A stretch of DNA of 64,000 bases. Origin: an uncultured Rhizobium sp. (GTDB taxonomy: Bacteria > Pseudomonadota > Alphaproteobacteria > Rickettsiales > UBA1997). The stretch lies in contig CAZICL010000006.1 in assembly GCA_964537735.1 (NCBI GenBank), forward strand, positions 989 to 64,988, given 5' to 3'. The notes below the pieces were generated by a model, which saw only the letters and a program-made list of their open reading frames with translations, had not been told where the DNA came from and did not search any database. Of this stretch, positions 5,713 through 56,028 are shown one piece after another; the first letter of the stretch is position 1; the number at the start of each line of letters is the position of its first letter. The position numbers and the translations under genes are program-made.

Positions 5713-5725
5713 CTGCACTACTCTT
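5682..5725. repeat. direct repeat copy 1 (37 nt exact, 44 nt with 1 mismatch) at the ileS-fragment 3' end
   Basis: ggatgacggtgatttaacgaccgctttctagctgcac at 5682-5718 is identical to 6801-6837. The match continues to 5725/6844 with one mismatch. Confidence 0.95.
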
Positions 5726-6632
5726 AATAAATTTGCCATTTTTTATTGAGATAACTTTGCACATCTGACTCTTCCTCAGTAGTTAATTTTCTGCTAAACA
5801 TAACAACCTCAAAAGTTCGACCAATTACTCCTCCCACTAAACTGTTAGTAATTGCTGGACCTGGATAAGAACTGCTTGGCGGTATTACTGTATTTCTTGC
5901 TTGTGTGGCACTGTTGGTAGCATTTCTGCTGCTGCTGCTAATCTTTATATCTGCTCCATCGTAGCTGGTAGTTACTAAAGTGATGGTGTTGAATTGTGAT
6001 AAAGCTGTAATTTGCGCTCTTGGTTCAAAAGAGCTACCATCAAAGACATAAGCCGATAAACGAGAAGAGTTAGCATCATTGCCACTATGTGGATTATATC
6101 TGAAGAATGATGCGCCATTCAGTGCAAAAGAGAATGCTCTATTTCCAACCAATCCAGGAGCATCTAACTCGGTTACGGCAAATATTGTAAATTGTTGAGG
6201 AGTATCAGACGCATTACCTGAAGCAAGACTACAGGGAACTGTGACAGCTTTGAAATTTACCGATGGCAGACTATTGCGATAGTTTGCTTGATAGGTTGGC
6301 TTCGCAGCATCTGTTGCTTGAAGCAGAGTGATTTTTTGCAAATTCTGCGGATTAATATCATACCAGGTTGAGATTTTGGCACCATCAACAGCTTCTGATT
6401 TAATGAAGCTTTCTTCCGCAGCTGCATCAAGCCATAAATATAAATCGTTGATCCCGGCGATAGGCGAGCTTTTGGTTAAAGACCTTGCAGTACTTAATCT
6501 TGCCTTATCCAGCAATTTATTTCCCGAAACAACACCCGTAATTAACACTCCAATAATTAGAATTACGATTGAGAGTTCTATTAAAGAAAAAGCCCCATAT
6601 TTCTTTTTTGAAAGAACCGAATTTTGCTGCAT
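5724..6632 (-). CDS. prepilin-leader (type IV pilin/pseudopilin-like) protein with a LamG-like C-terminal domain
   Basis: The 302-aa ORF has an N-terminus (MQQNSVLSKKKYGAFSLIELSIVILIIGVLITGV) with a prepilin cleavage/methylation-type motif and hydrophobic helix. Its C-terminal tail (FEVVMFSRKLTTEEESDVQSYLNKKWQIY) resembles the end of LamG/concanavalin-like domains. Confidence 0.7.
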   Translation of the reverse strand: MQQNSVLSKKKYGAFSLIELSIVILIIGVLITGVVSGNKLLDKARLSTARSLTKSSPIAGINDLYLWLDAAAEESFIKSEAVDGAKISTWYDINPQNLQKITLLQATDAAKPTYQANYRNSLPSVNFKAVTVPCSLASGNASDTPQQFTIFAVTELDAPGLVGNRAFSFALNGASFFRYNPHSGNDANSSRLSAYVFDGSSFEPRAQITALSQFNTITLVTTSYDGADIKISSSSRNATNSATQARNTVIPPSSSYPGPAITNSLVGGVIGRTFEVVMFSRKLTTEEESDVQSYLNKKWQIY

Positions 6633-19316: not shown

Positions 19317-20234
19317 TTACCCGACCAAATCTTTCGCAAAAGATTTGGCATCAAATTCTTGCAAATCTTCGATTTTTTCTCCCAAGCCAATGGCGTAAAT
19401 CGGCTTTTTAAATTTATCGGCCAAAGCCACAACCACTCCACCTTTTGCAGAGCCATCAAGTTTAGTAATTATTAACCCCGTAATTCCAACGATCTGATTA
19501 AAAACTTCTAACTGCTGTTTAGCATTTTGACCAATTGTAGCATCCAAAATTAATAGATTTTCCTGCGGCGCTTGCGGATCAATCTTTTTCAGCACCGTAT
19601 TTATTTTCTTCAACTCATCCATCAAATTTTGTTTATTTTGCAGGCGGCCGGCCGTGTCAACCAACAAAAAATCTACTTGTTTAGTTTTTGCCAAACTCAA
19701 CGCACGATGCGCCACCGCCGCCGGATCTTCACCATCTTTTGTAGCTGCGATAATTTCGCAATCAGCTCTCTTGGCCCACACTTCTAACTGCTGCGCAGCT
19801 GCTGCTCTGAAAGTATCGCAAGCTGCAATCATTACGCTTTTTTTCTGATTTTTTAGGTTAAAAGCAATTTTACCAATTGTAGTAGTTTTTCCTGCGCCAT
19901 TAACACCGTTAAAGATTATCACTTGTGGCTTAGCGTCGCTATTGACTTGCAAGGCTTGTTGACAAGGCAACAATATTTTTTCTACTTCGGAGCTTAAGAA
20001 ATTTTTTACTTCCTCAACTGTAATATTTTTTTGAAATTTCTTAGCCCGTAATTCAGCAATCATTTTCGTCGCCGTATCAGTGCCCACATCGGCTATTATC
20101 AAGGCCTCTTCTAGCTCATCAATAATTTCATCATCCAGTTTCTGGTGAGTAAAAATTTGTGAAATCGCTTGTGAGATTTTTGATTTCTGCCGCGCTTCTC
20201 CGACACTTTTCGACTTAGAAAAAAAACTGAACAT
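19317..20234 (-). CDS. ftsY: signal recognition particle receptor FtsY (short form, NG domain)
   Basis: 305 aa with SRP GTPase motifs (GVNGAGKTTTIGK, DTAGR, TKLDGSAKGG). Confidence 0.95.
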   Translation of the reverse strand: MFSFFSKSKSVGEARQKSKISQAISQIFTHQKLDDEIIDELEEALIIADVGTDTATKMIAELRAKKFQKNITVEEVKNFLSSEVEKILLPCQQALQVNSDAKPQVIIFNGVNGAGKTTTIGKIAFNLKNQKKSVMIAACDTFRAAAAQQLEVWAKRADCEIIAATKDGEDPAAVAHRALSLAKTKQVDFLLVDTAGRLQNKQNLMDELKKINTVLKKIDPQAPQENLLILDATIGQNAKQQLEVFNQIVGITGLIITKLDGSAKGGVVVALADKFKKPIYAIGLGEKIEDLQEFDAKSFAKDLVG

Positions 20235-20238
20235 GGTT

Positions 20239-21204
20239 TTATTTGCTTAAATAATTTTCTGGATTCACCGCATCACGCCCCTTACGCAGACCGAAATAAA
20301 GCTGAGGTGATGTAACATTTCCGGTTGATCCAACTTCACCAATTTTGCTTGATTTACTTACCTTCTGTCCACGCTTCACCGTAATTCTCGACAAATGGGC
20401 ATAAGCCGTAATCCATCCTCCAGAATGTTTGATAATAATCAGGTTGCCGTAACCCTTCAATTCATTGCCGGCGTAAGAAATAACACCATCTTCAGCAGCT
20501 GTGACAGTAGCACCTTCCGAGCCTTTAATGTTGATCCCATCATTATAAAGACCACCACTTTTAGGACCGAATTTTGAAATAATCTGACCGCGTAAAGGCC
20601 AAGCAAAATGATTGAGTTTATCGAGAATTTTTTCGACGAATCCCGGAGAATTATTAGATGATGGCGATCCGTATTTTTCCGTTGTTACAACTCTAGTCGG
20701 AGTCACTTCATCACTGCCATTGTTGAAATGAACTATTCTGATTTTTTGCCCAACTTCTAAATGATAAGGAGATTTCAAATCATTCATTTCTATCAAACTG
20801 CCAATATTCATTTTGTAGGTGCGGGCAATTGAATAAAGTGTATCACCAGCTACAGTAATGTGATAAGTTGGCGCTGGGATCGTTAGCTTGTCACCAGGTT
20901 GTAATTTATAAGGCGCCGTCAAATTATTCTGCTTAATCAAATCGCGTAACGGCACCTGATATTTCTTCGAAACGACGTAAATTGTATCACCCTTGCTAAC
21001 TTCAATTTGGTGGTTACGCAATACTATCGGACGCACCGTATTTCTGCCATTACTACGATATTTATCTTTATTATAGCTGCTATTTTTCCCGTAAAAACTC
21101 TGTCCACGATTTACCACCTGCGCTTGCTTGTGTGAACAGGCAAAACACAGAGACAGAAACATTAGTGCTACAAAGGCTTTGAAGCTTGTTTTTGTTTTGC
21201 TCAT
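20239..21204 (-). CDS. LysM-domain M23 family metallopeptidase (NlpD-like)
   Basis: 321 aa with a lipoprotein-type signal (LSLCFACS), two LysM repeats (GDTIYVVSKKYQV..., GDTLYSIARTYKM...) and a C-terminal M23 core (GINIKG...HLS...GSTG). Confidence 0.85.
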   Translation of the reverse strand: MSKTKTSFKAFVALMFLSLCFACSHKQAQVVNRGQSFYGKNSSYNKDKYRSNGRNTVRPIVLRNHQIEVSKGDTIYVVSKKYQVPLRDLIKQNNLTAPYKLQPGDKLTIPAPTYHITVAGDTLYSIARTYKMNIGSLIEMNDLKSPYHLEVGQKIRIVHFNNGSDEVTPTRVVTTEKYGSPSSNNSPGFVEKILDKLNHFAWPLRGQIISKFGPKSGGLYNDGINIKGSEGATVTAAEDGVISYAGNELKGYGNLIIIKHSGGWITAYAHLSRITVKRGQKVSKSSKIGEVGSTGNVTSPQLYFGLRKGRDAVNPENYLSK

Positions 21205-21271
21205 GTTGGATTTTATTTTGATCAGTCAGGTCTAACTTTAAGAGGCTTGGGTCAAACAATCAATTACCGAC

Positions 21272-22081
21272 ATGGATTTTTTCGCAATTCTAAATTCACA
21301 ACTTTCTTCTTCAGCGCAAGTTTTTTTAGTAACAATTTTTGGCCTTATATTTGGCTCATTCGCCAGTCTTTTAAGCCATCGCTTGGTCAGCGGCGAATCA
21401 ATTATTTTCGCCAGATCACAATGTCCAAAATGCCACTACAAACTTCAAATCAAAAATTTAATACCGTTATTTTCCTGGTTGTTGCAACGCGGCAAATGCA
21501 GCAATTGTCACAGTAAAATCTCTGTGCGTTATCCCATAATTGAACTGAGCTTCGCTGTTGCCTTCGTAATTATTTATTTTGTTGGCGGCCAAAAAATTGA
21601 CTATCGTTTAATACTGCTATGCCTGATTTCCTTTGCGCTAATCATGATGTGCATCACCGATCTTGAGCATTATTTTATTCCCAATTCACTGCAATATTTG
21701 CTGACAATATTTGTCATCTTGCTGCGCATTAATGACGACGGAGTTTATGGTTCTCTCACCTATATTAAAGCGGCTTGTGCCTACGCCGGATTTGGTTTAG
21801 CCTTATTACTACTATTTTACGTCACCACCAAAACAGAGGCTATCGGCATTGATGATATTAAATTATTTTTCATCGCCGGACTGCTTTTAGGCATCAATAA
21901 TTTTCTGCTATTTATGATGATTAACGGCGTTATCGGTACAATTTTTGGGGCAATTTGGCAAAAAATAAAAAATGACGGCACCTTTCCTTTCGCACCTTCA
22001 ATCGCAATAGCCTTCTATATCGCTATGCTTTCCGGCGATAAGATTAATCTTGTTGAAACTTTAGGATCGCTAATTTTTTAA
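21272..22081 (+). CDS. pilD: A24-family prepilin peptidase
   Basis: 269 aa with the N-terminal Cys-rich box (CPKCHYKL...CSNCHSKISVRYPIIEL) and a polytopic body containing conserved Asp residues (ITDLEHYFIP, GIDDIKLF). Confidence 0.85.
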   Translation: MDFFAILNSQLSSSAQVFLVTIFGLIFGSFASLLSHRLVSGESIIFARSQCPKCHYKLQIKNLIPLFSWLLQRGKCSNCHSKISVRYPIIELSFAVAFVIIYFVGGQKIDYRLILLCLISFALIMMCITDLEHYFIPNSLQYLLTIFVILLRINDDGVYGSLTYIKAACAYAGFGLALLLLFYVTTKTEAIGIDDIKLFFIAGLLLGINNFLLFMMINGVIGTIFGAIWQKIKNDGTFPFAPSIAIAFYIAMLSGDKINLVETLGSLIF

Positions 22082-40394: not shown

Positions 40395-40607
40395 ATGACA
40401 ATGATAACCTCCTGTCAAGATCTGGGGATACTAGTCCAAAAAGCTAGAAAATCACAAAATTTTACTCAACGACAACTGGCTGCATTATGCGGAGTTGGGG
40501 AAAGATTCATCATCGATTTAGAAAAAGGCAAAGCCACTTGCGCTATCGATAAGGCACTTACAGTTGCAACGAGTCTCGGCATTAAAATAACCGCCAAATA
40601 TAAATGA
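40395..40607 (+). CDS. hipB: XRE-family HTH antitoxin (HipB-like)
   Basis: 70 aa with an HTH (FTQRQLAALCGVGERFIIDLEKGK). It overlaps hipA with ATGA. Confidence 0.8.
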   Translation: MTMITSCQDLGILVQKARKSQNFTQRQLAALCGVGERFIIDLEKGKATCAIDKALTVATSLGIKITAKYK

Positions 40608-41872
40608 CCACAAACAAACTTAACGTCTATTTGAATAAAGTTTTTGTCGGAACTTTTGAGCAATCTTTGCAAGGTGGCGCGCTATCATTTGTTTACGATT
40701 CCAACTATTTAAAATCCAAAAATCCGTTAGCGCTTTCAATCTCTCTAGCTCTGCGTTCTGAACCATTTAAGACCAACAATATCAAACCATTTTTTGCCGG
40801 TCTTTTGCCAGAAGGAGACCAGCTGGATTTGGTTGCTGATGCTTTTAAAGTCTCGACAAAAAATCCTTTTTCACTGCTGCGTGAAATTGGCCGCGACTGT
40901 GCTGGCAGTGTTGAAATCATACCCCATGGTGAAAAAGTTCTGACATATTCTCAGGGCAAAATTGAGAAATTAACTCAAGATCGTCTGCTGGAAATTCTGC
41001 GCAAAACTAACAACACTGCACAAGCTATAAAAAGTGGCAAGAACCGCTTTTCACTTGCTGGGGCACAACGCAAAATAGCCGTTTTTTTTGATGAAAGTAA
41101 AAATTCGCTACCAGCTTTGGTCAATGGCAAACCCAGCACTCACATTCTAAAACCGCTAATGCCGCGATATAAAACTTCGGTACATAATGAGTTTTTTTGC
41201 ATGAAATTGGCAAAAGAAATGAATCTTGAAGTTGCAGAAGTTTTTTTTAAACAACTCGATGAACAGCCTTATCTATTGATTCGACGCTATGATCGCACTA
41301 AATTGGGCAAAAATTTTATTCGCTTACATCAGGAAGATTTTTGTCAGGCTTTGGGATTGATGCCGGAACAAAAATATCAAGGAGTTGATGGCGGACCTGG
41401 AATTGACATTTGCAAAGATTTAATCTCCAAACACAGCGCCAGAGCCGTTCTTGACCGTTATCGTTTTTTACGAGCTACCATTTTTAACTATTTAATTGGC
41501 AATTCTGATGCTCATGGCAAGAATTTTTCTTTCCTCCACAAGGCTGGGAAGACAAGACTCGCACCTTTCTATGACCTCATTTCAACTTGTTGTTATGCCG
41601 AAATTGACCATCAAATAGCCATGAAAATTGGTAAGGTTAAAGACCCCAACCGCCTTTCTTTGAATAATTGGCACCAGATTGTTGCCAATACCAACACCGC
41701 CAGATCACACTTGGAAAAAGAACTACAAAGCTTTGCCTTAACTTTGCCTCAGGCCGCAAAATCACTGCAGGAAAAACTCCGCAGAAAAGGCATCGAATCA
41801 GAAATTTTTGACGAAATCCAAAATCTTATTCACAAAAGATCACAAAAAATTCTGGGATATTTTAAAAGCTAA
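40604..41872 (+). CDS. hipA: type II toxin-antitoxin Ser/Thr kinase toxin HipA
   Basis: 422 aa with an N-terminal HipA coupling domain (LNVYLNKVFVGTF), SLAGAQRK, and the catalytic loop GNSDAHGKNFSF. Confidence 0.85.
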   Translation: MTTNKLNVYLNKVFVGTFEQSLQGGALSFVYDSNYLKSKNPLALSISLALRSEPFKTNNIKPFFAGLLPEGDQLDLVADAFKVSTKNPFSLLREIGRDCAGSVEIIPHGEKVLTYSQGKIEKLTQDRLLEILRKTNNTAQAIKSGKNRFSLAGAQRKIAVFFDESKNSLPALVNGKPSTHILKPLMPRYKTSVHNEFFCMKLAKEMNLEVAEVFFKQLDEQPYLLIRRYDRTKLGKNFIRLHQEDFCQALGLMPEQKYQGVDGGPGIDICKDLISKHSARAVLDRYRFLRATIFNYLIGNSDAHGKNFSFLHKAGKTRLAPFYDLISTCCYAEIDHQIAMKIGKVKDPNRLSLNNWHQIVANTNTARSHLEKELQSFALTLPQAAKSLQEKLRRKGIESEIFDEIQNLIHKRSQKILGYFKS

Positions 41873-48209: not shown

Positions 48210-49766
48210 ATGAGCCTTTTAAGAAAAATTTTACTTCCGGCACTATTACTGGCTTTACTTTCCTGTAACCAAAAGAAAGAAGATTCGGACAAAAATTCCA
48301 AAACAAAAAAATCTGAAGCTCAGAAAGAAGCTGATGGCACAGCAATTCCTAGTTTCTCGAAACTGATTATGGCACCACCGCCACCACAAATTGGTGGCGA
48401 TAAAATCATTTCTTTTTCCGTTACCGATCAAGTTCCGCTTAAAGACGTGTTGATTGAACTCGGGCGCGTAGCAAAGATTGATATCGACCTTGACAGCGGC
48501 ATCAACGGCGGTGTTGTAATTAACGCCCACAATCGTCCGCTTAAAGAAGTGATTGATCGCATTGCCACTGCCGGTAAATTGCGCTATTCTTACGAAAATG
48601 GTGTTCTGCATTTTGAACGTGACTTGCCTTACAACAAAAATTATTTCGTTGATTTTCTTGCCACCGGTCAACTTTGGTCTGATGTAGAAAGCAACATTTC
48701 AGCTATACTTTCGGACACTCACGGCAATACTAACGAATCGGCTTTGGATTCTTCCAGCAGTGGTCTTGCCCTCGCTCCTCCATCAAGATTCACTAGCAAT
48801 AAATCTGCCGGCATCATCTCGGTTTACGCCTCAAAGGCCCAACAAGAAAGTGTCTCTAAATATCTTGATGATGTTTACAAAAATTCTTCTGCTCAAGTTC
48901 TGATTGAAGCAAAAGTCGTTGAGGTAACTCTCACAAAACAATTCGACACCGGTATCAACTGGAGTTGGGTTGACGCTGGGAAATCATTTTCTACTACTGG
49001 ATCTTTTGCCTCTACTGGAGGCAGCACTACCCCAGCTTTTACTGCAACCGCTCCTAATGTTAAATTATTCGGCCTTGGTGGCACCTTAAGCGCTAGCATT
49101 AAAGCCTTGGAAGGCTTTGGTAAAGTTCACGCTCTTTCCAGCCCAAGAGTTAACGCCATAAATAATCAGAAAGCGCTATTAGATTTCACACAAAAGAAAA
49201 TTTATTTCACCGTTAGTTCGTCGTCTTCCACTTCTACAGGAACAGCAACTAACACTGTTGCTACTGTCACCGCCACTGAAAATTCAGTTGATGTGGGAAT
49301 TAAGCTGGAAATCACCCCGTCAATTAATAGAGCCACCAATGAAATTACACTGGATGTAAAACCAAAATTATCTCTTGATTCCGGTCAAGTTGCTGTCGAC
49401 CCTTCCGTTAACCCTTTAACCGGCGAATCTTTGGGCAACACAATTCCAATTATCAATTATCGCGAACTAGCAACTATCGCCAAAGTGCAAAGCGGCAATA
49501 TTCTTGTTATTGGTGGATTAATTGCCGAAGTCGGTTCGGAAGGCGGCAGTGGTATCCCAATTTTTATGCGCATCCCTGTCCTTAAATATCTTTTCGGCTA
49601 TTTCAGCAACTACTCTACCAAAGTTGAAACTGTGATCTTTATCAAAGCCACCATCATATCTAGCAGCAATTCTTTGGAAAAGCATGATCACACACTTTAC
49701 AATCGCGACAATCCAGATCGCAAAAAAACCAGGTGGGAAAAATATTTTGACTACAAAAACGATTAG
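48210..49766 (+). CDS. lipoprotein secretin (MshL/PilQ/GspD family)
   Basis: 518 aa with a lipobox (LALLSC), an N-terminal STN-like module (VPLKDVLIELGRVAKIDIDLD) and a secretin core (LSSPRVNAINNQKA, VQSGNILVIGGLI, GIPIFMRIPVLKYLFG). Confidence 0.85.
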   Translation: MSLLRKILLPALLLALLSCNQKKEDSDKNSKTKKSEAQKEADGTAIPSFSKLIMAPPPPQIGGDKIISFSVTDQVPLKDVLIELGRVAKIDIDLDSGINGGVVINAHNRPLKEVIDRIATAGKLRYSYENGVLHFERDLPYNKNYFVDFLATGQLWSDVESNISAILSDTHGNTNESALDSSSSGLALAPPSRFTSNKSAGIISVYASKAQQESVSKYLDDVYKNSSAQVLIEAKVVEVTLTKQFDTGINWSWVDAGKSFSTTGSFASTGGSTTPAFTATAPNVKLFGLGGTLSASIKALEGFGKVHALSSPRVNAINNQKALLDFTQKKIYFTVSSSSSTSTGTATNTVATVTATENSVDVGIKLEITPSINRATNEITLDVKPKLSLDSGQVAVDPSVNPLTGESLGNTIPIINYRELATIAKVQSGNILVIGGLIAEVGSEGGSGIPIFMRIPVLKYLFGYFSNYSTKVETVIFIKATIISSSNSLEKHDHTLYNRDNPDRKKTRWEKYFDYKND

Positions 49767-49771
49767 GTCAG

Positions 49772-50545
49772 ATGAGATCAATTCTAAAATATATTCTCCT
49801 CAGTGGAACTAGAGATCGCCTTTATCTTGGACTTCTTATCTGCCTGGTTATTGCCTTCTCACTTTCAATATTTCTAGGATCAACTGCGCTGGTTGAAGAG
49901 CGCCAAATGACTACCGCTTACATTGGCGGTTTAAGCCGCGCTGTTTTAGTTGTCGGAGCAATTCTTTTTGTCTGCTTAAACGTCAATCGCGCTTTCGAAA
50001 ATAAAGAAGTTGAATTTATTCTCTCTAAATCAATTTCACGTGAGAAATTTATTTTCGGTTATTTATCCGGATTCGTTATTGCCATTTCACTGATCATAAT
50101 TCCCCTCATAACTGCCATTTTAATTGTCACTCAAGCAGACGGCTTCGGCCTTCTGATCTGGTCACTGAGTTTACTCTCAGAATTAATGATTGTGATTTCC
50201 TTTGCGCTTCTGGCCTCACTAATTTTGCGCAACTCTTTTTCTGCCATCATGGCTACTCTCGGCTTTTACATTATTTCACGCTTAATGGGCATGTTTGTTA
50301 TGGCCATCCACTTACCAGCACAAATCACTTCCAACAATTTTGAACTGTCCGCTCATTCTTTCGCCATAGTTCTGAAGATGCTGTCAGCAATATTTCCACG
50401 CCTTGATTTATTCGGACAAAGTGCTTGGTTAAATTACGGAATCACTGATTTTTCCGATTTGAAAATAATCTTAATTCAATCGCTAATTTACATTCCGCTT
50501 ATGATTTTTATGTCTTTTCACGACTTCAAAAAGAAACAGTTTTAA
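49772..50545 (+). CDS. six-TM membrane protein, ABC-2/NosY-like permease fold (tentative)
   Basis: 257 aa starting 5 nt after the secretin stop. I count about six hydrophobic segments. The N-terminus (ILKYILLSGTRDRLYLGLLI) resembles ABC-2 type permeases. No ATPase gene is adjacent. Confidence 0.6.
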   Translation: MRSILKYILLSGTRDRLYLGLLICLVIAFSLSIFLGSTALVEERQMTTAYIGGLSRAVLVVGAILFVCLNVNRAFENKEVEFILSKSISREKFIFGYLSGFVIAISLIIIPLITAILIVTQADGFGLLIWSLSLLSELMIVISFALLASLILRNSFSAIMATLGFYIISRLMGMFVMAIHLPAQITSNNFELSAHSFAIVLKMLSAIFPRLDLFGQSAWLNYGITDFSDLKIILIQSLIYIPLMIFMSFHDFKKKQF

Positions 50546-50555
50546 GCAATCAACG

Positions 50556-51329
50556 ATGTTTTCTTCTTATCAGGATTTTCGTTTCTTTTTTTATCTCTAC
50601 TCCCACAAGATTTTTTTCTGGCTCTTCCTCACTTGTTTTACCTTGCAAATCTGCTTTTGGCGTCATACCGAAAATATCAAACCAAAAATCGATATTGTCC
50701 CCCCAGCACCAAGTAAATATTTGGTAGCCGCTGCTTCTCTTGGTGATAAAGAATTTTTATTTCGTGTTATGGCCGCCAGATTGCAAAATTCCGGCGACGT
50801 TTTTGCCGGTTTTGTGGCACTAAAAGAATATGATTATTCCAGAATTTATGGCTGGCTTACGGCTTTGGATCAACTTAATTCCAAATCAAATTTTGCTCCT
50901 TCTTTAGCTGCTTACATTTATTCTCAAACTCAAAAATCCGCAGATACCAAATATATCGTTGATTATCTTGATGAACATTCTTCAGCCGATATAGACCGCA
51001 ATTGGTGGTGGCTTTTTCAGGCCATTTACATTGCTAAAAATAATTTGGGCGACATCAATCGCGCACTGGAATTATCTTACAAATTAAGCAATAACAACGC
51101 CCAGAATGCACCACTATGGACTAAACAAATGCCAGCTTTTATCCATGAAGAAATGGGTGATGGTTGTATGGCTTTTGCCATAATTCAGAAGATTCTTAAT
51201 GAGGCTGAAAGTGGAGTACGCAAAGTTGATACTGACGAATTAAATTTCATGCGTCATTTTATTCGTGATCGTCTGCACAAGCTTAAAGAAGGAAAATTTA
51301 ATCCCGCACAATGTCGTACCGTTTTATGA
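50556..51329 (+). CDS. hypothetical membrane-anchored helical (TPR-like?) protein
   Basis: 257 aa with one N-terminal TM segment (IFFWLFLTCFTLQICFW) followed by a helical repeat-like body. It starts 10 nt after the previous gene, and its stop overlaps the nadC ATG (ATGA). Confidence 0.6.
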   Translation: MFSSYQDFRFFFYLYSHKIFFWLFLTCFTLQICFWRHTENIKPKIDIVPPAPSKYLVAAASLGDKEFLFRVMAARLQNSGDVFAGFVALKEYDYSRIYGWLTALDQLNSKSNFAPSLAAYIYSQTQKSADTKYIVDYLDEHSSADIDRNWWWLFQAIYIAKNNLGDINRALELSYKLSNNNAQNAPLWTKQMPAFIHEEMGDGCMAFAIIQKILNEAESGVRKVDTDELNFMRHFIRDRLHKLKEGKFNPAQCRTVL

Positions 51330-52192
51330 AATCATTTGATGACGCTTTAAAAGAAATTTGTCGCCTTGCCCTTAAAGAAGACATGGCGCAAAAAGATGTT
51401 ACTTCTGATCTGGTTATAAAAAATAACGAACCAATTTCGTTTACGATTTCAGCTCGAGAAGACATCATATTGTGCGGCGTTAATGCTGTGCACCATTGTT
51501 TTGACGAGTTGACCCGCCTTAAAAAGTTTCACGATATTTTTCTAGGGCTGCAGATAAATGCTCATGACGGAGATTTGGTAAAAAACGGCGCTTCAATAGC
51601 CAGCGGATTTGGTGATCCGCATTTAATTTTCGCTGCTGAGAGAGTAATCCTTAATCTGCTGCAACATTTAAGCGGCATTGCCACTGCAACCAACAATTTT
51701 GTCACCACTCTTAATAACGACAAAATCAAGATTCTGGATACACGCAAAACTTTACCCGGATTGCGCGCTTTACAAAAACACGCCGTTTTAGTTGGCGGTG
51801 GACAAAATCACCGCTACAACTTATCCGACCGCATTTTGATAAAAGATAATCACATCGCCGCCGCCGGAAGCATTACTCAAGCCATAAATTTAGCCAAAAA
51901 AAGCCGTAAAGATTTAATCATTGAAATTGAGTGCGATAATTTTGAACAAGTCACTGAGGCCGTAAAATCAAGTCCTGACATCATTATGCTGGATAATATG
52001 AGCAAGTCTGAAGTTGAGAAATGCAGCAAGATAATCCGCGCCCACAAAGGAAGGAAAATTTTCATCGAGATTTCCGGCGGTATTAATTTAAGCAACATTA
52101 AAAGCTTCTGTGCCCTTGACGTTGATTTCATTTCCATCGGCTCTCTGACTCACTCCGTGAAAGCTGTTGATATTGGTCTCGATCTCCTTTGA
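51326..52192 (+). CDS. nadC: nicotinate-nucleotide pyrophosphorylase (carboxylating)
   Basis: DTRKTLPGLR, HRYNLSD, IKDNH and a C-terminal TIM-barrel pattern. The start was moved from 51311 to 51326. Confidence 0.9.
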   Translation: MKSFDDALKEICRLALKEDMAQKDVTSDLVIKNNEPISFTISAREDIILCGVNAVHHCFDELTRLKKFHDIFLGLQINAHDGDLVKNGASIASGFGDPHLIFAAERVILNLLQHLSGIATATNNFVTTLNNDKIKILDTRKTLPGLRALQKHAVLVGGGQNHRYNLSDRILIKDNHIAAAGSITQAINLAKKSRKDLIIEIECDNFEQVTEAVKSSPDIIMLDNMSKSEVEKCSKIIRAHKGRKIFIEISGGINLSNIKSFCALDVDFISIGSLTHSVKAVDIGLDLL

Positions 52193-52219: not shown

Positions 52220-53995
52220 ATGAACAAAACTCACAGTGCTTTTTCATTTCTGCTGCATGCTCTCAAACCTTTCAAATTCTATGTAGGGCTTCATCTTTTT
52301 GTTGTGCTGTACAACGCCATCGACCTCTCACTGTGGCCTTATCTTTCAAAAATCCTGATTGATCGTCTAGCCACCACGCCGCACGACCAAATTATTTCCT
52401 CCATCTGGCCTATTGCCTTATTGCTAATCATTTTCACCTTTGTTCCCGGAATGATTTGGCGGCTGAGTGATTTTTCTTGGATGCGGCTTAATCCGGCAAT
52501 AAGAAAAAAAATCACCGTTGAAGCCATGGATTACACCATGCAACATTCTCACGATTTTTTTCAAAATAACTTTTCTGGATCAATTGCTAACAAAATACGT
52601 GACCTTGCCAATTCGACTCCGCCAATTTTAGGTCGGCTTCTTTACAGTTTTTTAAATGTTATTCTAAGCCTGATTATTGCCTTCGTCACGCTGCTATTTG
52701 TTCATAAATTTTTTGCTTTCGCTTTGATTATTTGGGCGGTGATTTTCATCATCATGGCCATTTATGCTGCAAAAAAAGTAGGCCCTCTATCAATCGCCGT
52801 TGCCAAACACAAAACCACTATCATGGGCAATCTGGTTGATGTTCTGGGCAATATTTCTAACGTGCGCTTTTTTACTGCCTCACGATTTGAATCAAATAGA
52901 ATCAAAGCTTTACAAGATGATTACAGCAAAGCCTCCAAGAAAAAAGATCGCTTTTTAATTAAATTTTACATTCTTCACGCTTGCAGTTTTTCCATTTATT
53001 GTGCCATCGGCATCACTGTTCTGATCTCGCTTTACGTTCAAAATCAAGTTACTCTCGGTGATTTTATTCTGCTCTTTACCCTTAATAATTGGATCATTCA
53101 TTTAATGTGGATGTCCGCCAATGAGTTAAATGGATTTTTGGAAGATGTTGGAACGGTAAATCAGGCATTACAAATTCTTAACCAACCCTTACAGATTAAG
53201 GATAAAAGTGATGCCAAGAAACTTGATGCAACTTGCGGCGAAATTATCTTTGAAAATGTTGGATTTAATTATCACAAAAATTTGTCACCGCTTTTTTCTG
53301 ATAAAAATTTAAAAATTTCTGCTGGACAAAAAGTTGGTTTAGTTGGTCATTCTGGAGGTGGAAAAACCAGTTTTGTAAATTTGATTTTACGTTTTTATGA
53401 CATTGATAGCGGACGAATTTTAATTGACGGACAAGATATTGCTGAAGTTACACAAGACTCGCTGCGCAGTTCAATTGGTATGATTCCGCAAGATCCTTCA
53501 CTTTTTCACCGCTCTTTAAGAGAAAATATTTCCTACGGTTTTGATGCTACTGAAGAAGAGATTATTAGTGCTGCAAAAAATGCTCATGCTCACGAATTTA
53601 TAGAAAAATTACCACAAGGTTATGAATCTTTGGTTGGCGAACGTGGGGTTAAATTATCTGGCGGACAACGTCAAAGAATTGCCATTGCCCGCGCTTTTTT
53701 AAAAAATTCTCCGATTTTAATTCTTGATGAAGCGACTAGTCAGCTTGATTCAATCACCGAAAATCTGATTCAAGATGCACTGCAAAAATTAATACAAAAC
53801 AAAACTACCCTTGTCATCGCACATCGTCTATCAACACTAAAATCCATGGATCGTATTTTAGTTTTTGATCAGGGGAAAATTATTGAAGATGGTTCACACC
53901 AAGATTTACTTAGCTTAAATGGTTCTTACAAAAAGCTGTGGGATTCGCAAATTGGTGGATTTTTAATTGAAAATTCTAGTGAAAATAATGACTAA
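52220..53995 (+). CDS. fused permease/ATPase ABC exporter (MsbA-like)
   Basis: 591 aa with a six-TM N-terminal half, Walker A (GHSGGGKTS), the signature LSGGQRQR and Walker B (ILILDEATS). Confidence 0.9.
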   Translation: MNKTHSAFSFLLHALKPFKFYVGLHLFVVLYNAIDLSLWPYLSKILIDRLATTPHDQIISSIWPIALLLIIFTFVPGMIWRLSDFSWMRLNPAIRKKITVEAMDYTMQHSHDFFQNNFSGSIANKIRDLANSTPPILGRLLYSFLNVILSLIIAFVTLLFVHKFFAFALIIWAVIFIIMAIYAAKKVGPLSIAVAKHKTTIMGNLVDVLGNISNVRFFTASRFESNRIKALQDDYSKASKKKDRFLIKFYILHACSFSIYCAIGITVLISLYVQNQVTLGDFILLFTLNNWIIHLMWMSANELNGFLEDVGTVNQALQILNQPLQIKDKSDAKKLDATCGEIIFENVGFNYHKNLSPLFSDKNLKISAGQKVGLVGHSGGGKTSFVNLILRFYDIDSGRILIDGQDIAEVTQDSLRSSIGMIPQDPSLFHRSLRENISYGFDATEEEIISAAKNAHAHEFIEKLPQGYESLVGERGVKLSGGQRQRIAIARAFLKNSPILILDEATSQLDSITENLIQDALQKLIQNKTTLVIAHRLSTLKSMDRILVFDQGKIIEDGSHQDLLSLNGSYKKLWDSQIGGFLIENSSENND

Positions 53996-54745: not shown

Positions 54746-55768
54746 CTATTTATTCCGCACCAAATCTAAAACAAACTCAACATTTTCAATTGGAGTTTGT
54801 GGCACAATTCCGTGGCCCAAATTAAAGATAAAAGGTTTGTCACCAAACTTTTCTAAAATATCTAAAACTTCTTTTTCGATTTCTTTTTTAGAACCAAAAG
54901 CCAGCAATAAATTATCCAAGTTTCCTTGCACAATAGCATCACAATCTTGTTGTAAGTTCTTTCTCGCCCAATTTCTTTCAAGGCTTTGATCAAGTGCTAT
55001 TCCATCACAACCAACTTGCTTGGTAAATTCTAAATAATTCATACCAATTCCACGCGGAAAGCAAATTATTGGAGTTTGTGGATGAAGTTTTTTTAACTGT
55101 GAAACAATTTTTTTAGTCGGCTCAATCACCCATTTTTGCAATTCAAACGGCGGTAAAATTCCGGCCCAAGAATCAAATAATTTCACCACATCAGCTCCTG
55201 CTGAAATTTGCAGAGATAAATATTCGATTATGCTTTGAGTGATAATTTCAATTAATTGTGAAAAATATTGCGGATCTTTAAGAGCAGTTTGACGAGTTTT
55301 TTCAAAATTTTTCGATCCACCTTTCTCTATCATATAACAAGCTAACGTCCACGGAGCACCAGAAAATCCAATCAAAGCTGTATCGTCACCTAATTTTGAT
55401 TTTGTGAGTTCTAAAGCCTCAAAAACTGGATTTAAATGCGATTTAATATTATCTCTCCTGAGATTTTCTAATTCAAAATCCCCCAACTTCGGACCTTCAT
55501 TTTTAACAAATTCCACTTTAACACCAAGTGCATCTGGAATTACCAAAATATCTGAAAAAATAATTGCTGCATCAAAACCAAACCGACGAATTGGCTGAAG
55601 TGTTACTTCTGTAGCTAGTTTTGGGTTATAACAAAGATCTAAAAAATTATTAACTCCTGATCTGATTTCACGATATTCTGGAAGATATCTGCCTGCTTGT
55701 CTCATTACCCAAATTGGTGGGGAAGAATTTATCTCTTTTTTAAGAAGTGTATTAAGTAATTTATTCAT
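54746..55768 (-). CDS. hemE: uroporphyrinogen decarboxylase
   Basis: 340 aa with PPIWVMRQAGRYLPEYR and SDILVIPDALG. Confidence 0.95.
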   Translation of the reverse strand: MNKLLNTLLKKEINSSPPIWVMRQAGRYLPEYREIRSGVNNFLDLCYNPKLATEVTLQPIRRFGFDAAIIFSDILVIPDALGVKVEFVKNEGPKLGDFELENLRRDNIKSHLNPVFEALELTKSKLGDDTALIGFSGAPWTLACYMIEKGGSKNFEKTRQTALKDPQYFSQLIEIITQSIIEYLSLQISAGADVVKLFDSWAGILPPFELQKWVIEPTKKIVSQLKKLHPQTPIICFPRGIGMNYLEFTKQVGCDGIALDQSLERNWARKNLQQDCDAIVQGNLDNLLLAFGSKKEIEKEVLDILEKFGDKPFIFNLGHGIVPQTPIENVEFVLDLVRNK

Positions 55769-56028
55769 TTAGAAATTAGATAATTTTAATGGTGCTGTTA
55801 ATTTCTTAATTAAAAGTTTTTAACAATTTTATTAACAGTTTTGAAATTAGTTATCTTAGAAAATAAAGGATTTTAAGAGTTATTAACAGAAATAAATTAT
55901 TAAAAAAACTTTATTAACAGAAAGAAACTATGTTGAAAAAATGTTAAAATCTTTAATAAGTTTTTTTGAAAAATTAAATCCGTAAATAAGTCATAAGTTT
56001 TTAACAATTTATTAACAGTTTTTTTAAC
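55769..56028. other. candidate chromosomal replication origin (oriC) / CtrA- and DnaA-box-like repeat cluster
   Basis: This 260-bp hemE-bolA spacer is very AT-rich. TTATTAACA occurs at 55829, 55880, 55911 and 56009, with an inverted partial copy at 55795-55802. There are seven TTAAC pentamers and one exact TTAA-N7-TTAAC (56001-56016). A 29-nt block is repeated at both ends (55814-55842 versus 55995-56023). Confidence 0.5.

Follow-up and report, generated by a model that had tools for sequence, protein, structure and literature searches.

The subject of this report is a three-gene unit within a 64,000-nt stretch of DNA deposited as uncultured Rhizobium sp. (GenBank assembly GCA_964537735.1, contig CAZICL010000006.1, positions 989 to 64,988 of the forward strand; placed by GTDB in the Rickettsiales, UBA1997), hereafter called the window. 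The unit, or trio, consists of a gene for a lipoprotein secretin followed by two membrane protein genes, designated ORF2 and ORF3, after which comes nadC (coordinates in Table 1). On the DNA, the TAG stop codon of the secretin gene is separated by 5 nt from the ATG of ORF2, the TAA stop of ORF2 is separated by 10 nt from the ATG of ORF3, and the TGA stop of ORF3 overlaps the ATG of nadC at 51326 as ATGA; the public gene call for nadC, at 288 aa, starts at this same ATG. A divergent nuoF lies upstream of the secretin. An earlier note, made from the sequence alone, had described this layout with its gaps, its overlap and the divergent nuoF, and had stated that no alignment, ATPase or platform gene is present within 10 kb on either side. 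The open reading frame list, the DNA and the window annotation agreed with this description, and Pfam annotation of positions 38.2 to 59.8 kb of the window returned no T2SSE, T2SSF or N_methyl gene. The comparisons reported here, which concern gene content and gene order, nevertheless place the trio in a set of pilus genes.

The secretin was a member of its superfamily by Pfam, with PF00263 matched over residues 299 to 483 (E=2.3e-34, 118.9 bits against a cut-off of 27.5). The best NCBIfam model was MshL (TIGR02519; 2e-59), with GspD, PilQ and SctC ranking behind, and the MshL score of 201 bits fell below the equivalog cut-off of 250.2 bits, the orthologue in the distantly related locus L009 reaching 213 bits. 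(Relative loci and contigs are denoted L followed by a number; many are alphaproteobacterial metagenome-assembled genomes [MAGs].) The closest solved structures in the PDB were GspD and PilQ. The lipobox LLSC could be read in the N-terminus MSLLRKILLPALLLALLSC, and the Cys at the lipobox position was retained in all homologue N-termini read. The lipobox and the canonical secretin core named in the earlier note were thereby confirmed; its "STN-like" N-domain had no Pfam match, though the protein aligned with the HofQ model from residue 66 and also with an N-terminal block of the L009 secretin. The latter protein, which is encoded in a pilus cluster and is likewise an MshL-like lipoprotein, was 29% identical to the window secretin over the full length (E=7e-69).

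The AlphaFold model of ORF2 (predicted local distance difference test [pLDDT] score of 69, moderate confidence) showed a short N-terminal helix followed by six long helices. The top PDB folds retrieved with Foldseek were PmtD and NosY, which are permeases of the ATP-binding cassette (ABC) ABC-2 class, matched over the full length with a probability of 1.00 and TM-scores of 0.54 to 0.66, and a profile of the ORF2 family found PmtD in the PDB at E=0.0024. Pfam ABC2_membrane_3 was matched by 5 of 10 homologues tested (best E=1.6e-6); the window ORF2 itself was sub-threshold for ABC2_membrane_2 (11.5 bits versus a gathering score of 27.2), and NCBIfam, searched to E values of up to 10, gave no match for ORF2 or ORF3, whether from the window's clade or from the distant one represented by L009. 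In its modeled fold and topology, ORF2 is an ABC-2 permease, as the earlier description of a six-transmembrane (TM) ABC-2/NosY-like protein had held. It was 32 to 34% identical to the 253-aa product of the gene following the secretin in L009, L010 and L011, with motifs in common. Residues invariant in both clades were located in the N-terminal amphipathic helix, the TM2-TM3 loop (FENKEVEF…SR) and the long TM5-TM6 loop (PRLDLxGQSxWLxYG). The TM2-TM3 loop is the contact site for the ABC ATPase in the ABC-2 exporter class, and the pattern of invariant residues suggests that the predicted permease may still couple to an ATPase and may also retain a conserved periplasmic contact.

The partner ATPase was looked for in the window and in the relatives. 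The only ABC ATPase domain found in the window belongs to a fused MsbA-like exporter, which was considered as the missing ATPase of ORF2 and rejected because it has an ABC_membrane domain of its own. In L009, L010, L011, L088 and L174, a cognate ABC ATPase was encoded in the same cluster as the ORF2 homologue. The claim that the permease lacks a cognate ATPase gene holds for the surroundings of ORF2 in the window and does not extend to the distant clusters.

The AlphaFold model of ORF3 (pLDDT 80) was all-helical, an N-terminal helix being followed by stacked helical hairpins, in keeping with the single N-terminal TM segment and helical body resembling tetratricopeptide repeats (TPRs) that had been proposed for it. 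Its fold matches in the PDB were weak and TPR-like only (for example, MamA), with E values of at least 0.026; by sequence, nothing in the PDB fell below E=0.16, and no family model in Pfam or NCBIfam matched. ORF3 nonetheless represents a sizeable family, with 487 clusters at 50% identity collected at E of ≤1e-3 by exhaustive profile search, and includes a distant subfamily 25 to 35% identical to the window protein. Conserved cysteines occur near the C-terminus, the position of one partner differing between the two clades; read from the sequence, these hint at a disulfide and a periplasmic body, short of proof. The possibility that ORF3 is a paralogue of the TPR protein encoded in the distant clusters was ruled out by hhalign, which gave a probability of <1%.

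Close relatives of ORF2 and ORF3, at 58 to 87% identity, numbered in the hundreds for each protein and came from MAGs mostly labelled Rickettsiales or Alphaproteobacteria. Many MAG records of this clade carry names that are clearly wrong ("Rickettsia typhi," "Rhizobium sp. Q54," "uncultured Rhizobium sp."; for example, L016, L019, L035 and L036) and are unfit for taxonomy. Two long clade contigs matched the window in the order nuoF, secretin, ORF2, ORF3, nadC and MsbA-like exporter, with nuoF divergent, and the entire 20-kb housekeeping neighbourhood was syntenic within the clade, so that adjacency of the trio there carries little weight alone. A wider scan with an ORF2 alignment, taking one genome per species, yielded 79 loci. 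The secretin was immediately upstream of ORF2 in 63 of 71 assessable species loci (in L046 and L067, the two were also adjacent by eye), and ORF3 was immediately downstream in 66 of 76; nine loci had secretin and ORF2 without ORF3 or nadC. The adjacency of secretin, ORF2 and ORF3 is non-random.

The order of the trio was shared from the window's clade to Micavibrio-like lineages, at approximately 30% identity per protein, and the comparison of neighbourhoods that the earlier note had set as its refuting check showed the linkage to secretins to be conserved in three genomic contexts. The trio was situated between PilU and an AraC-type regulator in L009, L010, L011, L088 and L174, after PilD in L078 and L080, and after the divergent nuoF in the window's clade. 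Retention of the linkage across these contexts argues that the adjacency is functional. The gene after ORF3 was an AraC-type regulator in the distant clusters and nadC in the window's clade only. Hence nadC is a neighbour of the trio and lies outside the system, its coupling being confined to the clade and probably a by-product of genome compaction.

The context of the distant ORF3 subfamily was a single conserved gene cluster, present in L009, L010, L011 and L174, with a full copy in L088 added by a genome scan. The cluster begins with three genes lacking a family match (∼520, ∼215 and 175 to 210 aa), followed by an ABC ATPase and a TPR protein, and continues with PilD, two T2SSE ATPases (PilT and PilU), the secretin, the 253-aa ORF2, the ORF3 homologue, the AraC-type regulator and an N_methyl pilin. 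In L089, the order secretin, ORF2, ORF3, AraC and pilin was observed, the upstream sequence being absent from the locus, while L090 (Micavibrio sp.) contained the trio only. PilT and PilU scored 475 and 424 bits, respectively, against the 319-bit cut-off of TIGR01420, and the cluster ABC ATPase was of the DrrA/GldA/PmtA type, which is the type that partners ABC-2 permeases. In L174 (2900-4535), PilD was shortened to 136 aa, comprising the N-domain only, with a DDE transposase inserted beside it; the pilus system of this locus may be inactivated.

A sister arrangement was found in L148 and L145 (G+C content [GC] of ∼52%) by a metagenome scan seeded with a PilC fragment. L148 has an MshE-like ATPase, PilC, homologues of the three alignment-like genes and an ABC ATPase 45% identical to that of the main cluster, whereas L145 ends within the first alignment-like gene; no secretin or trio was seen in either locus, and no ORF2 in L148. 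The MshE-like ATPases of both carry the cyclic di-GMP (c-di-GMP) domain (60 bits against a 38-bit cut-off). For the platform protein and the assembly ATPase, the highest-scoring models were GspF and GspE, respectively, with neither score reaching its equivalog cut-off. The three L148 alignment-like genes matched their main-cluster counterparts with phmmer E values of 2.6e-29, ∼1e-7 and 7.5e-6. These three genes, at the position of PilM/N/O/P, gave no significant Pfam or NCBIfam match in L088 (515, 222 and 208 aa) or in L148 (546, 219 and 292 aa). Their products (L088 15-2850; L009 1-2120; L148 10490-13651) were a protein of ∼520 aa, one of ∼215 aa combining a single membrane helix with a coiled coil, and one of 175 to 290 aa with a signal-like N-terminus, and they may be highly divergent alignment-complex proteins.

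Across the related lineages, the type IVa components observed jointly were therefore PilD, PilT/PilU, secretin and pilin from loci of the L009 type and the assembly ATPase and PilC from L148 and L145. Taken together, the main cluster and the sister arrangement lead to the conclusion that the ancestral system was probably a complete type IVa/MSHA-like pilus machine (MSHA, mannose-sensitive hemagglutinin) with a built-in ABC transporter. The transporter is split, its ATPase being encoded with the inner-membrane alignment genes and its permease, together with ORF3, with the secretin.

Within the window's clade, parts of this machine were found at separate sites. The prepilin peptidase PilD and a pilin-like gene, which the earlier note had placed at 21.3 kb and 5.7 kb, were verified by their Pfam domains (Table 1), PilD lying ∼26 kb from the trio. 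In L078 and L080, the order was FtsY(-), LysM/M23(-), PilD(+), secretin, ORF2, ORF3, nadC and a nucleotidyl transferase, with PilT and PilU missing between PilD and the secretin. The block FtsY(-)-LysM/M23(-)-PilD(+) at positions 19317 to 22081 of the window corresponds to L078 5295-8420 and L080 5491-8384. This common block points to former contiguity of PilD and the trio and to the later insertion, or a rearrangement, of ∼26 kb in the lineage to which the window belongs; L078 and L080 are, as judged from their sequences, evidently intermediates.

Other pilus genes accompanied ORF2 elsewhere in the clade. A pilin-like homologue of the 302-aa protein of the window took the place of the secretin upstream of ORF2 in L033, L036, L038, L041 and, as two tandem copies, L039. 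These large proteins with a pilin-type N-terminus (302 to 334 aa; L039 7700-9891, L041 8889-9869) constitute a family of the clade's own, and their large C-terminal domain had no family match. A 400-aa PilC/GspF gene (E=3.7e-80) was located 6 to 8 kb from secretin-ORF2 in L064 and L127, and approximately 30 more clade loci (of at least 6 kb, with 62 to 81% identity to the PilC fragment) contained PilC alone, with no adjacent ATPase. Profile searches, iterated for each of the three alignment-like proteins and for the TPR protein, gave no convincing homologue in the window or clade loci; the only hits, both weak, were to the third of the alignment-like genes (L009, 175 aa; L088, 208 aa) and came from L096 and L127, with E values of ∼1e-5 to 1e-4. 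The ABC ATPase profile turned generic on iteration, and no orthologue was distinguishable in the window or clade loci. The window's lineage thus retains PilD, pilin-like genes and the trio, and close clade relatives also retain PilC, all at separate sites. Published surveys report type IV pilus or type II secretion system (T2SS) genes to be widespread in basal Rickettsiales (PMC10847448, PMC9352585) and type IVa pilus (T4aP) genes to be typically distributed over several loci (PMC6668835).

From these observations, the trio probably represents the sub-module that supplies the outer-membrane and accessory parts of a type IVa/MSHA-like pilus machine, the genes of which are scattered in a reduced alphaproteobacterial genome. 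Of the two readings offered in the earlier note, that of a dispersed type IV filament remnant gains support from the PilD-trio arrangement of L078 and L080, the lone PilC genes of the clade and the pilin-like genes upstream of ORF2. The lipoprotein secretin would serve as the exit channel of the pilus, and a dimer of ORF2 would form the membrane part of an ABC-2 exporter, with the gene for its ATPase at another site. ORF3 would be an inner-membrane protein with a periplasmic helical-repeat domain and could link the transporter to the secretin or to the pilins. By analogy with PilG, PilH and PilI of Myxococcus xanthus, the trio would then act as an ATP-driven accessory that helps to assemble or operate the secretin-pilus conduit, and this is its most likely role. 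A more specific version is speculative and rather unlikely, namely that ORF2, ORF3 and the cluster ABC ATPase act as an ATP-driven mechanotransducer on MshL-type secretins, for channel assembly or gating or for extraction of pilin helices from the inner membrane, and that in the reduced clade the trio might serve motor-free export across two membranes.

Several points weigh against the assignment of the trio to a scattered pilus machine. No PilB/MshE, PilT, alignment-like genes or ABC ATPase partner was found in the window's clade, as covered by the 64-kb window and ∼20 kb around two loci in many members, and their loss is possible. The PilC genes observed are those of clade relatives, none having been seen in the contig of the window itself. 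A periplasmic location for ORF3 depends on the clade-shifting cysteine pair, and the charges flanking its membrane helix leave the orientation undecided. The biochemical roles of ORF2 and ORF3 are wholly inferred.

The first of these points also counts in favour of an autonomous conduit, in which the pilus motors were lost in the reduced clade while the secretin, ORF3 and the ABC-2 permease, served by some ATPase, were retained for pilus-independent, ATP-driven export across two membranes. No PilB, PilT or ABC ATPase was present in any clade sequence examined, L078 and L080 have no PilT or PilU in the interval from PilD to the secretin, and the trio is strongly conserved in these small genomes (58 to 87% identity, >100 relatives). 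However, the clade retains PilD, several pilin-like genes and PilC, which are hard to explain without filament assembly; moreover, only a small part of each clade genome is visible, and the ancestral context is unambiguously a pilus cluster. This explanation is therefore considered unlikely, and the related proposal of the earlier note, a minimal or novel outer-membrane conduit, was left unsupported, since outside the window's clade the trio is embedded in a pilus cluster that includes an ABC ATPase.

Somewhat less credible still is a type II secretion system, in which a short pseudopilus would drive folded proteins through the secretin with the assistance of ORF2 and ORF3. The platform and assembly ATPase did score best against GspF and GspE, and the secretin also matched GspD, which is among its nearest solved structures, but all of these scores were below the equivalog cut-offs and the best model of the secretin was MshL. 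In addition, the retraction ATPases PilT and PilU of the ancestral cluster score above their cut-off, the assembly ATPase has the MshE-type c-di-GMP domain, and neither GspC/L/M genes nor a GspH-K pseudopilin set was seen. A coincidental neighbourhood, with ORF2 and ORF3 forming a general envelope ABC module placed beside the secretin through regional synteny of close relatives, would account for the syntenic 20-kb region and for species with secretin-ORF2 but no ORF3 or with pilin-ORF2-ORF3 but no secretin. Yet the order of the trio persists at ∼30% identity in lineages without other common synteny, and the gene that replaces the secretin upstream of ORF2 is another pilus gene, which makes coincidence very improbable.

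These results assign two sizeable protein families, ORF2 and ORF3, to type IV pilus machinery, both encoded beside the secretin; they are conserved, unnamed, secretin-linked pilus accessories. For annotation, the preferred interpretation of a secretin that looks like an "orphan" in a reduced genome is that it forms a piece of a scattered system.

The remaining features of the window are listed with the trio in Table 1. The GC of the window is ∼39%. The same DNA is contained in a 102,784-bp contig of a groundwater metagenome (ENA ERZ909576), in which position 1 of the window corresponds to position 773 of the record. A promoter and terminator scan of positions 47.9 to 54.9 kb found sites no more commonly than in shuffled sequence and was uninformative on operon structure. 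At ∼40400 to 41872, a small helix-turn-helix gene precedes one for a HipA-type kinase toxin with Couple_hipA and HipA_C domains, the two forming a toxin-antitoxin pair amid housekeeping genes. In the hemE/bolA intergenic region (55600 to 56000), the GC skew switches sign and one 400-nt bin falls to 23% GC, with hemE (54746 to 55768, minus strand) adjoining the low-GC bin. Alphaproteobacterial origins frequently adjoin hemE, and this region is a candidate replication origin; no perfect TTATCCACA box was found within it.

Table 1. Positions of the trio and of other features in the window
Feature	Coordinates	Strand	Evidence or position
Lipoprotein secretin, MshL type (518 aa)	48210..49766	+	Pfam Secretin; NCBIfam MshL as best model
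ORF2, six-helix ABC-2 (type V exporter) membrane subunit (257 aa)	49772..50545	+	AlphaFold model and Foldseek; profile
ORF3, one N-terminal membrane helix and TPR-like helical body (257 aa), unnamed family	50556..51329	+	AlphaFold model
nadC, quinolinate phosphoribosyltransferase	51326..52192	+	NCBIfam nadC 1.1e-87, above cut-off
MsbA-like exporter, fused ABC ATPase domain and own ABC_membrane domain	52220-53995		Pfam; two genes downstream of ORF3
Prepilin peptidase PilD	21272..22081	+	Pfam A24_N_bact 3.4e-28, Peptidase_A24 3.2e-13
302-aa protein, type IV pilin N-terminus (…GAFSLIELSIV…)	5724..6632	-	Pfam N_methyl 22.9 bits vs 21.2-bit cut-off

Compared with characterized proteins, ORF2 resembles the membrane subunits of NosDFY and PmtCD (ABC-2, type V exporters) in the six-helix topology and the long helix 5-6 loop of its model. 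It differs in being only 13 to 17% identical in sequence, in having no NosD- or NosL-like partner and in its context, which is a pilus cluster rather than copper-enzyme maturation or peptide toxin export. ORF3, as a small helical-repeat protein whose gene lies beside that of a secretin, recalls the TPR pilotins and secretin-assembly factors (PilF/PilW, Tgl and TadD/MshN); unlike the pilotins PilF/PilW/Tgl, it has an N-terminal membrane helix, no canonical lipobox and no TPR Pfam match.

At the level of the whole system, there is a close likeness to the MSHA pilus of Vibrio and Shewanella (PMC6668835). The best model of the secretin is MshL, the assembly ATPase of the related cluster has an MshE-type c-di-GMP N-domain, a TPR protein is encoded in the cluster (compare MshN), and the ancestral form is contained in one locus. 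The related clusters differ by the presence of PilD and PilT/PilU, of the ABC ATPase and the ABC-2 permease, and of ORF3; the secretin falls short of the MshL cut-off, and the genes of the window are scattered. In the MSH system as defined by Denise et al. 2019, mshM is mandatory and the locus is without prepilin peptidase and PilT (PMC6668835); among the called genes of the related clusters, no MshM/ExeA-type AAA ATPase was found, and PilD and PilT/PilU were present. The system is therefore most aptly regarded as a T4aP-like variant in which an ABC exporter is integrated, the secretin being of the MshL type and the ATPase of the MshE type.

For the ABC transporter, which appears to be a conserved built-in pilus component in several alphaproteobacterial lineages, including Micavibrio-labelled MAGs, a parallel is provided by M. 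xanthus. There, type IV pili require PilG (accessory), PilH (ATPase) and PilI (permease), and in the accounts of later papers these proteins are said to be necessary for the translocation of pilin (PMC3546991 and PMC3724824, which both cite Wu et al. 1998). As far as those accounts go, a type IVa pilus cluster encodes an ABC ATPase together with a permease and a third, "accessory" protein in both cases, but pilA-pilG-pilH-pilI form one operon in Myxococcus, whereas here the gene for the ATPase accompanies the alignment genes and those for the permease and ORF3 accompany the secretin. PilGHI is, on the same accounts, the only experimental precedent for the role suggested for the trio, and it would be one of functional analogy only. 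A second lineage with a pilus-linked ABC module, offering small genomes and a culturable relative (Micavibrio), opens a new route into the question of what PilG, PilH and PilI do.

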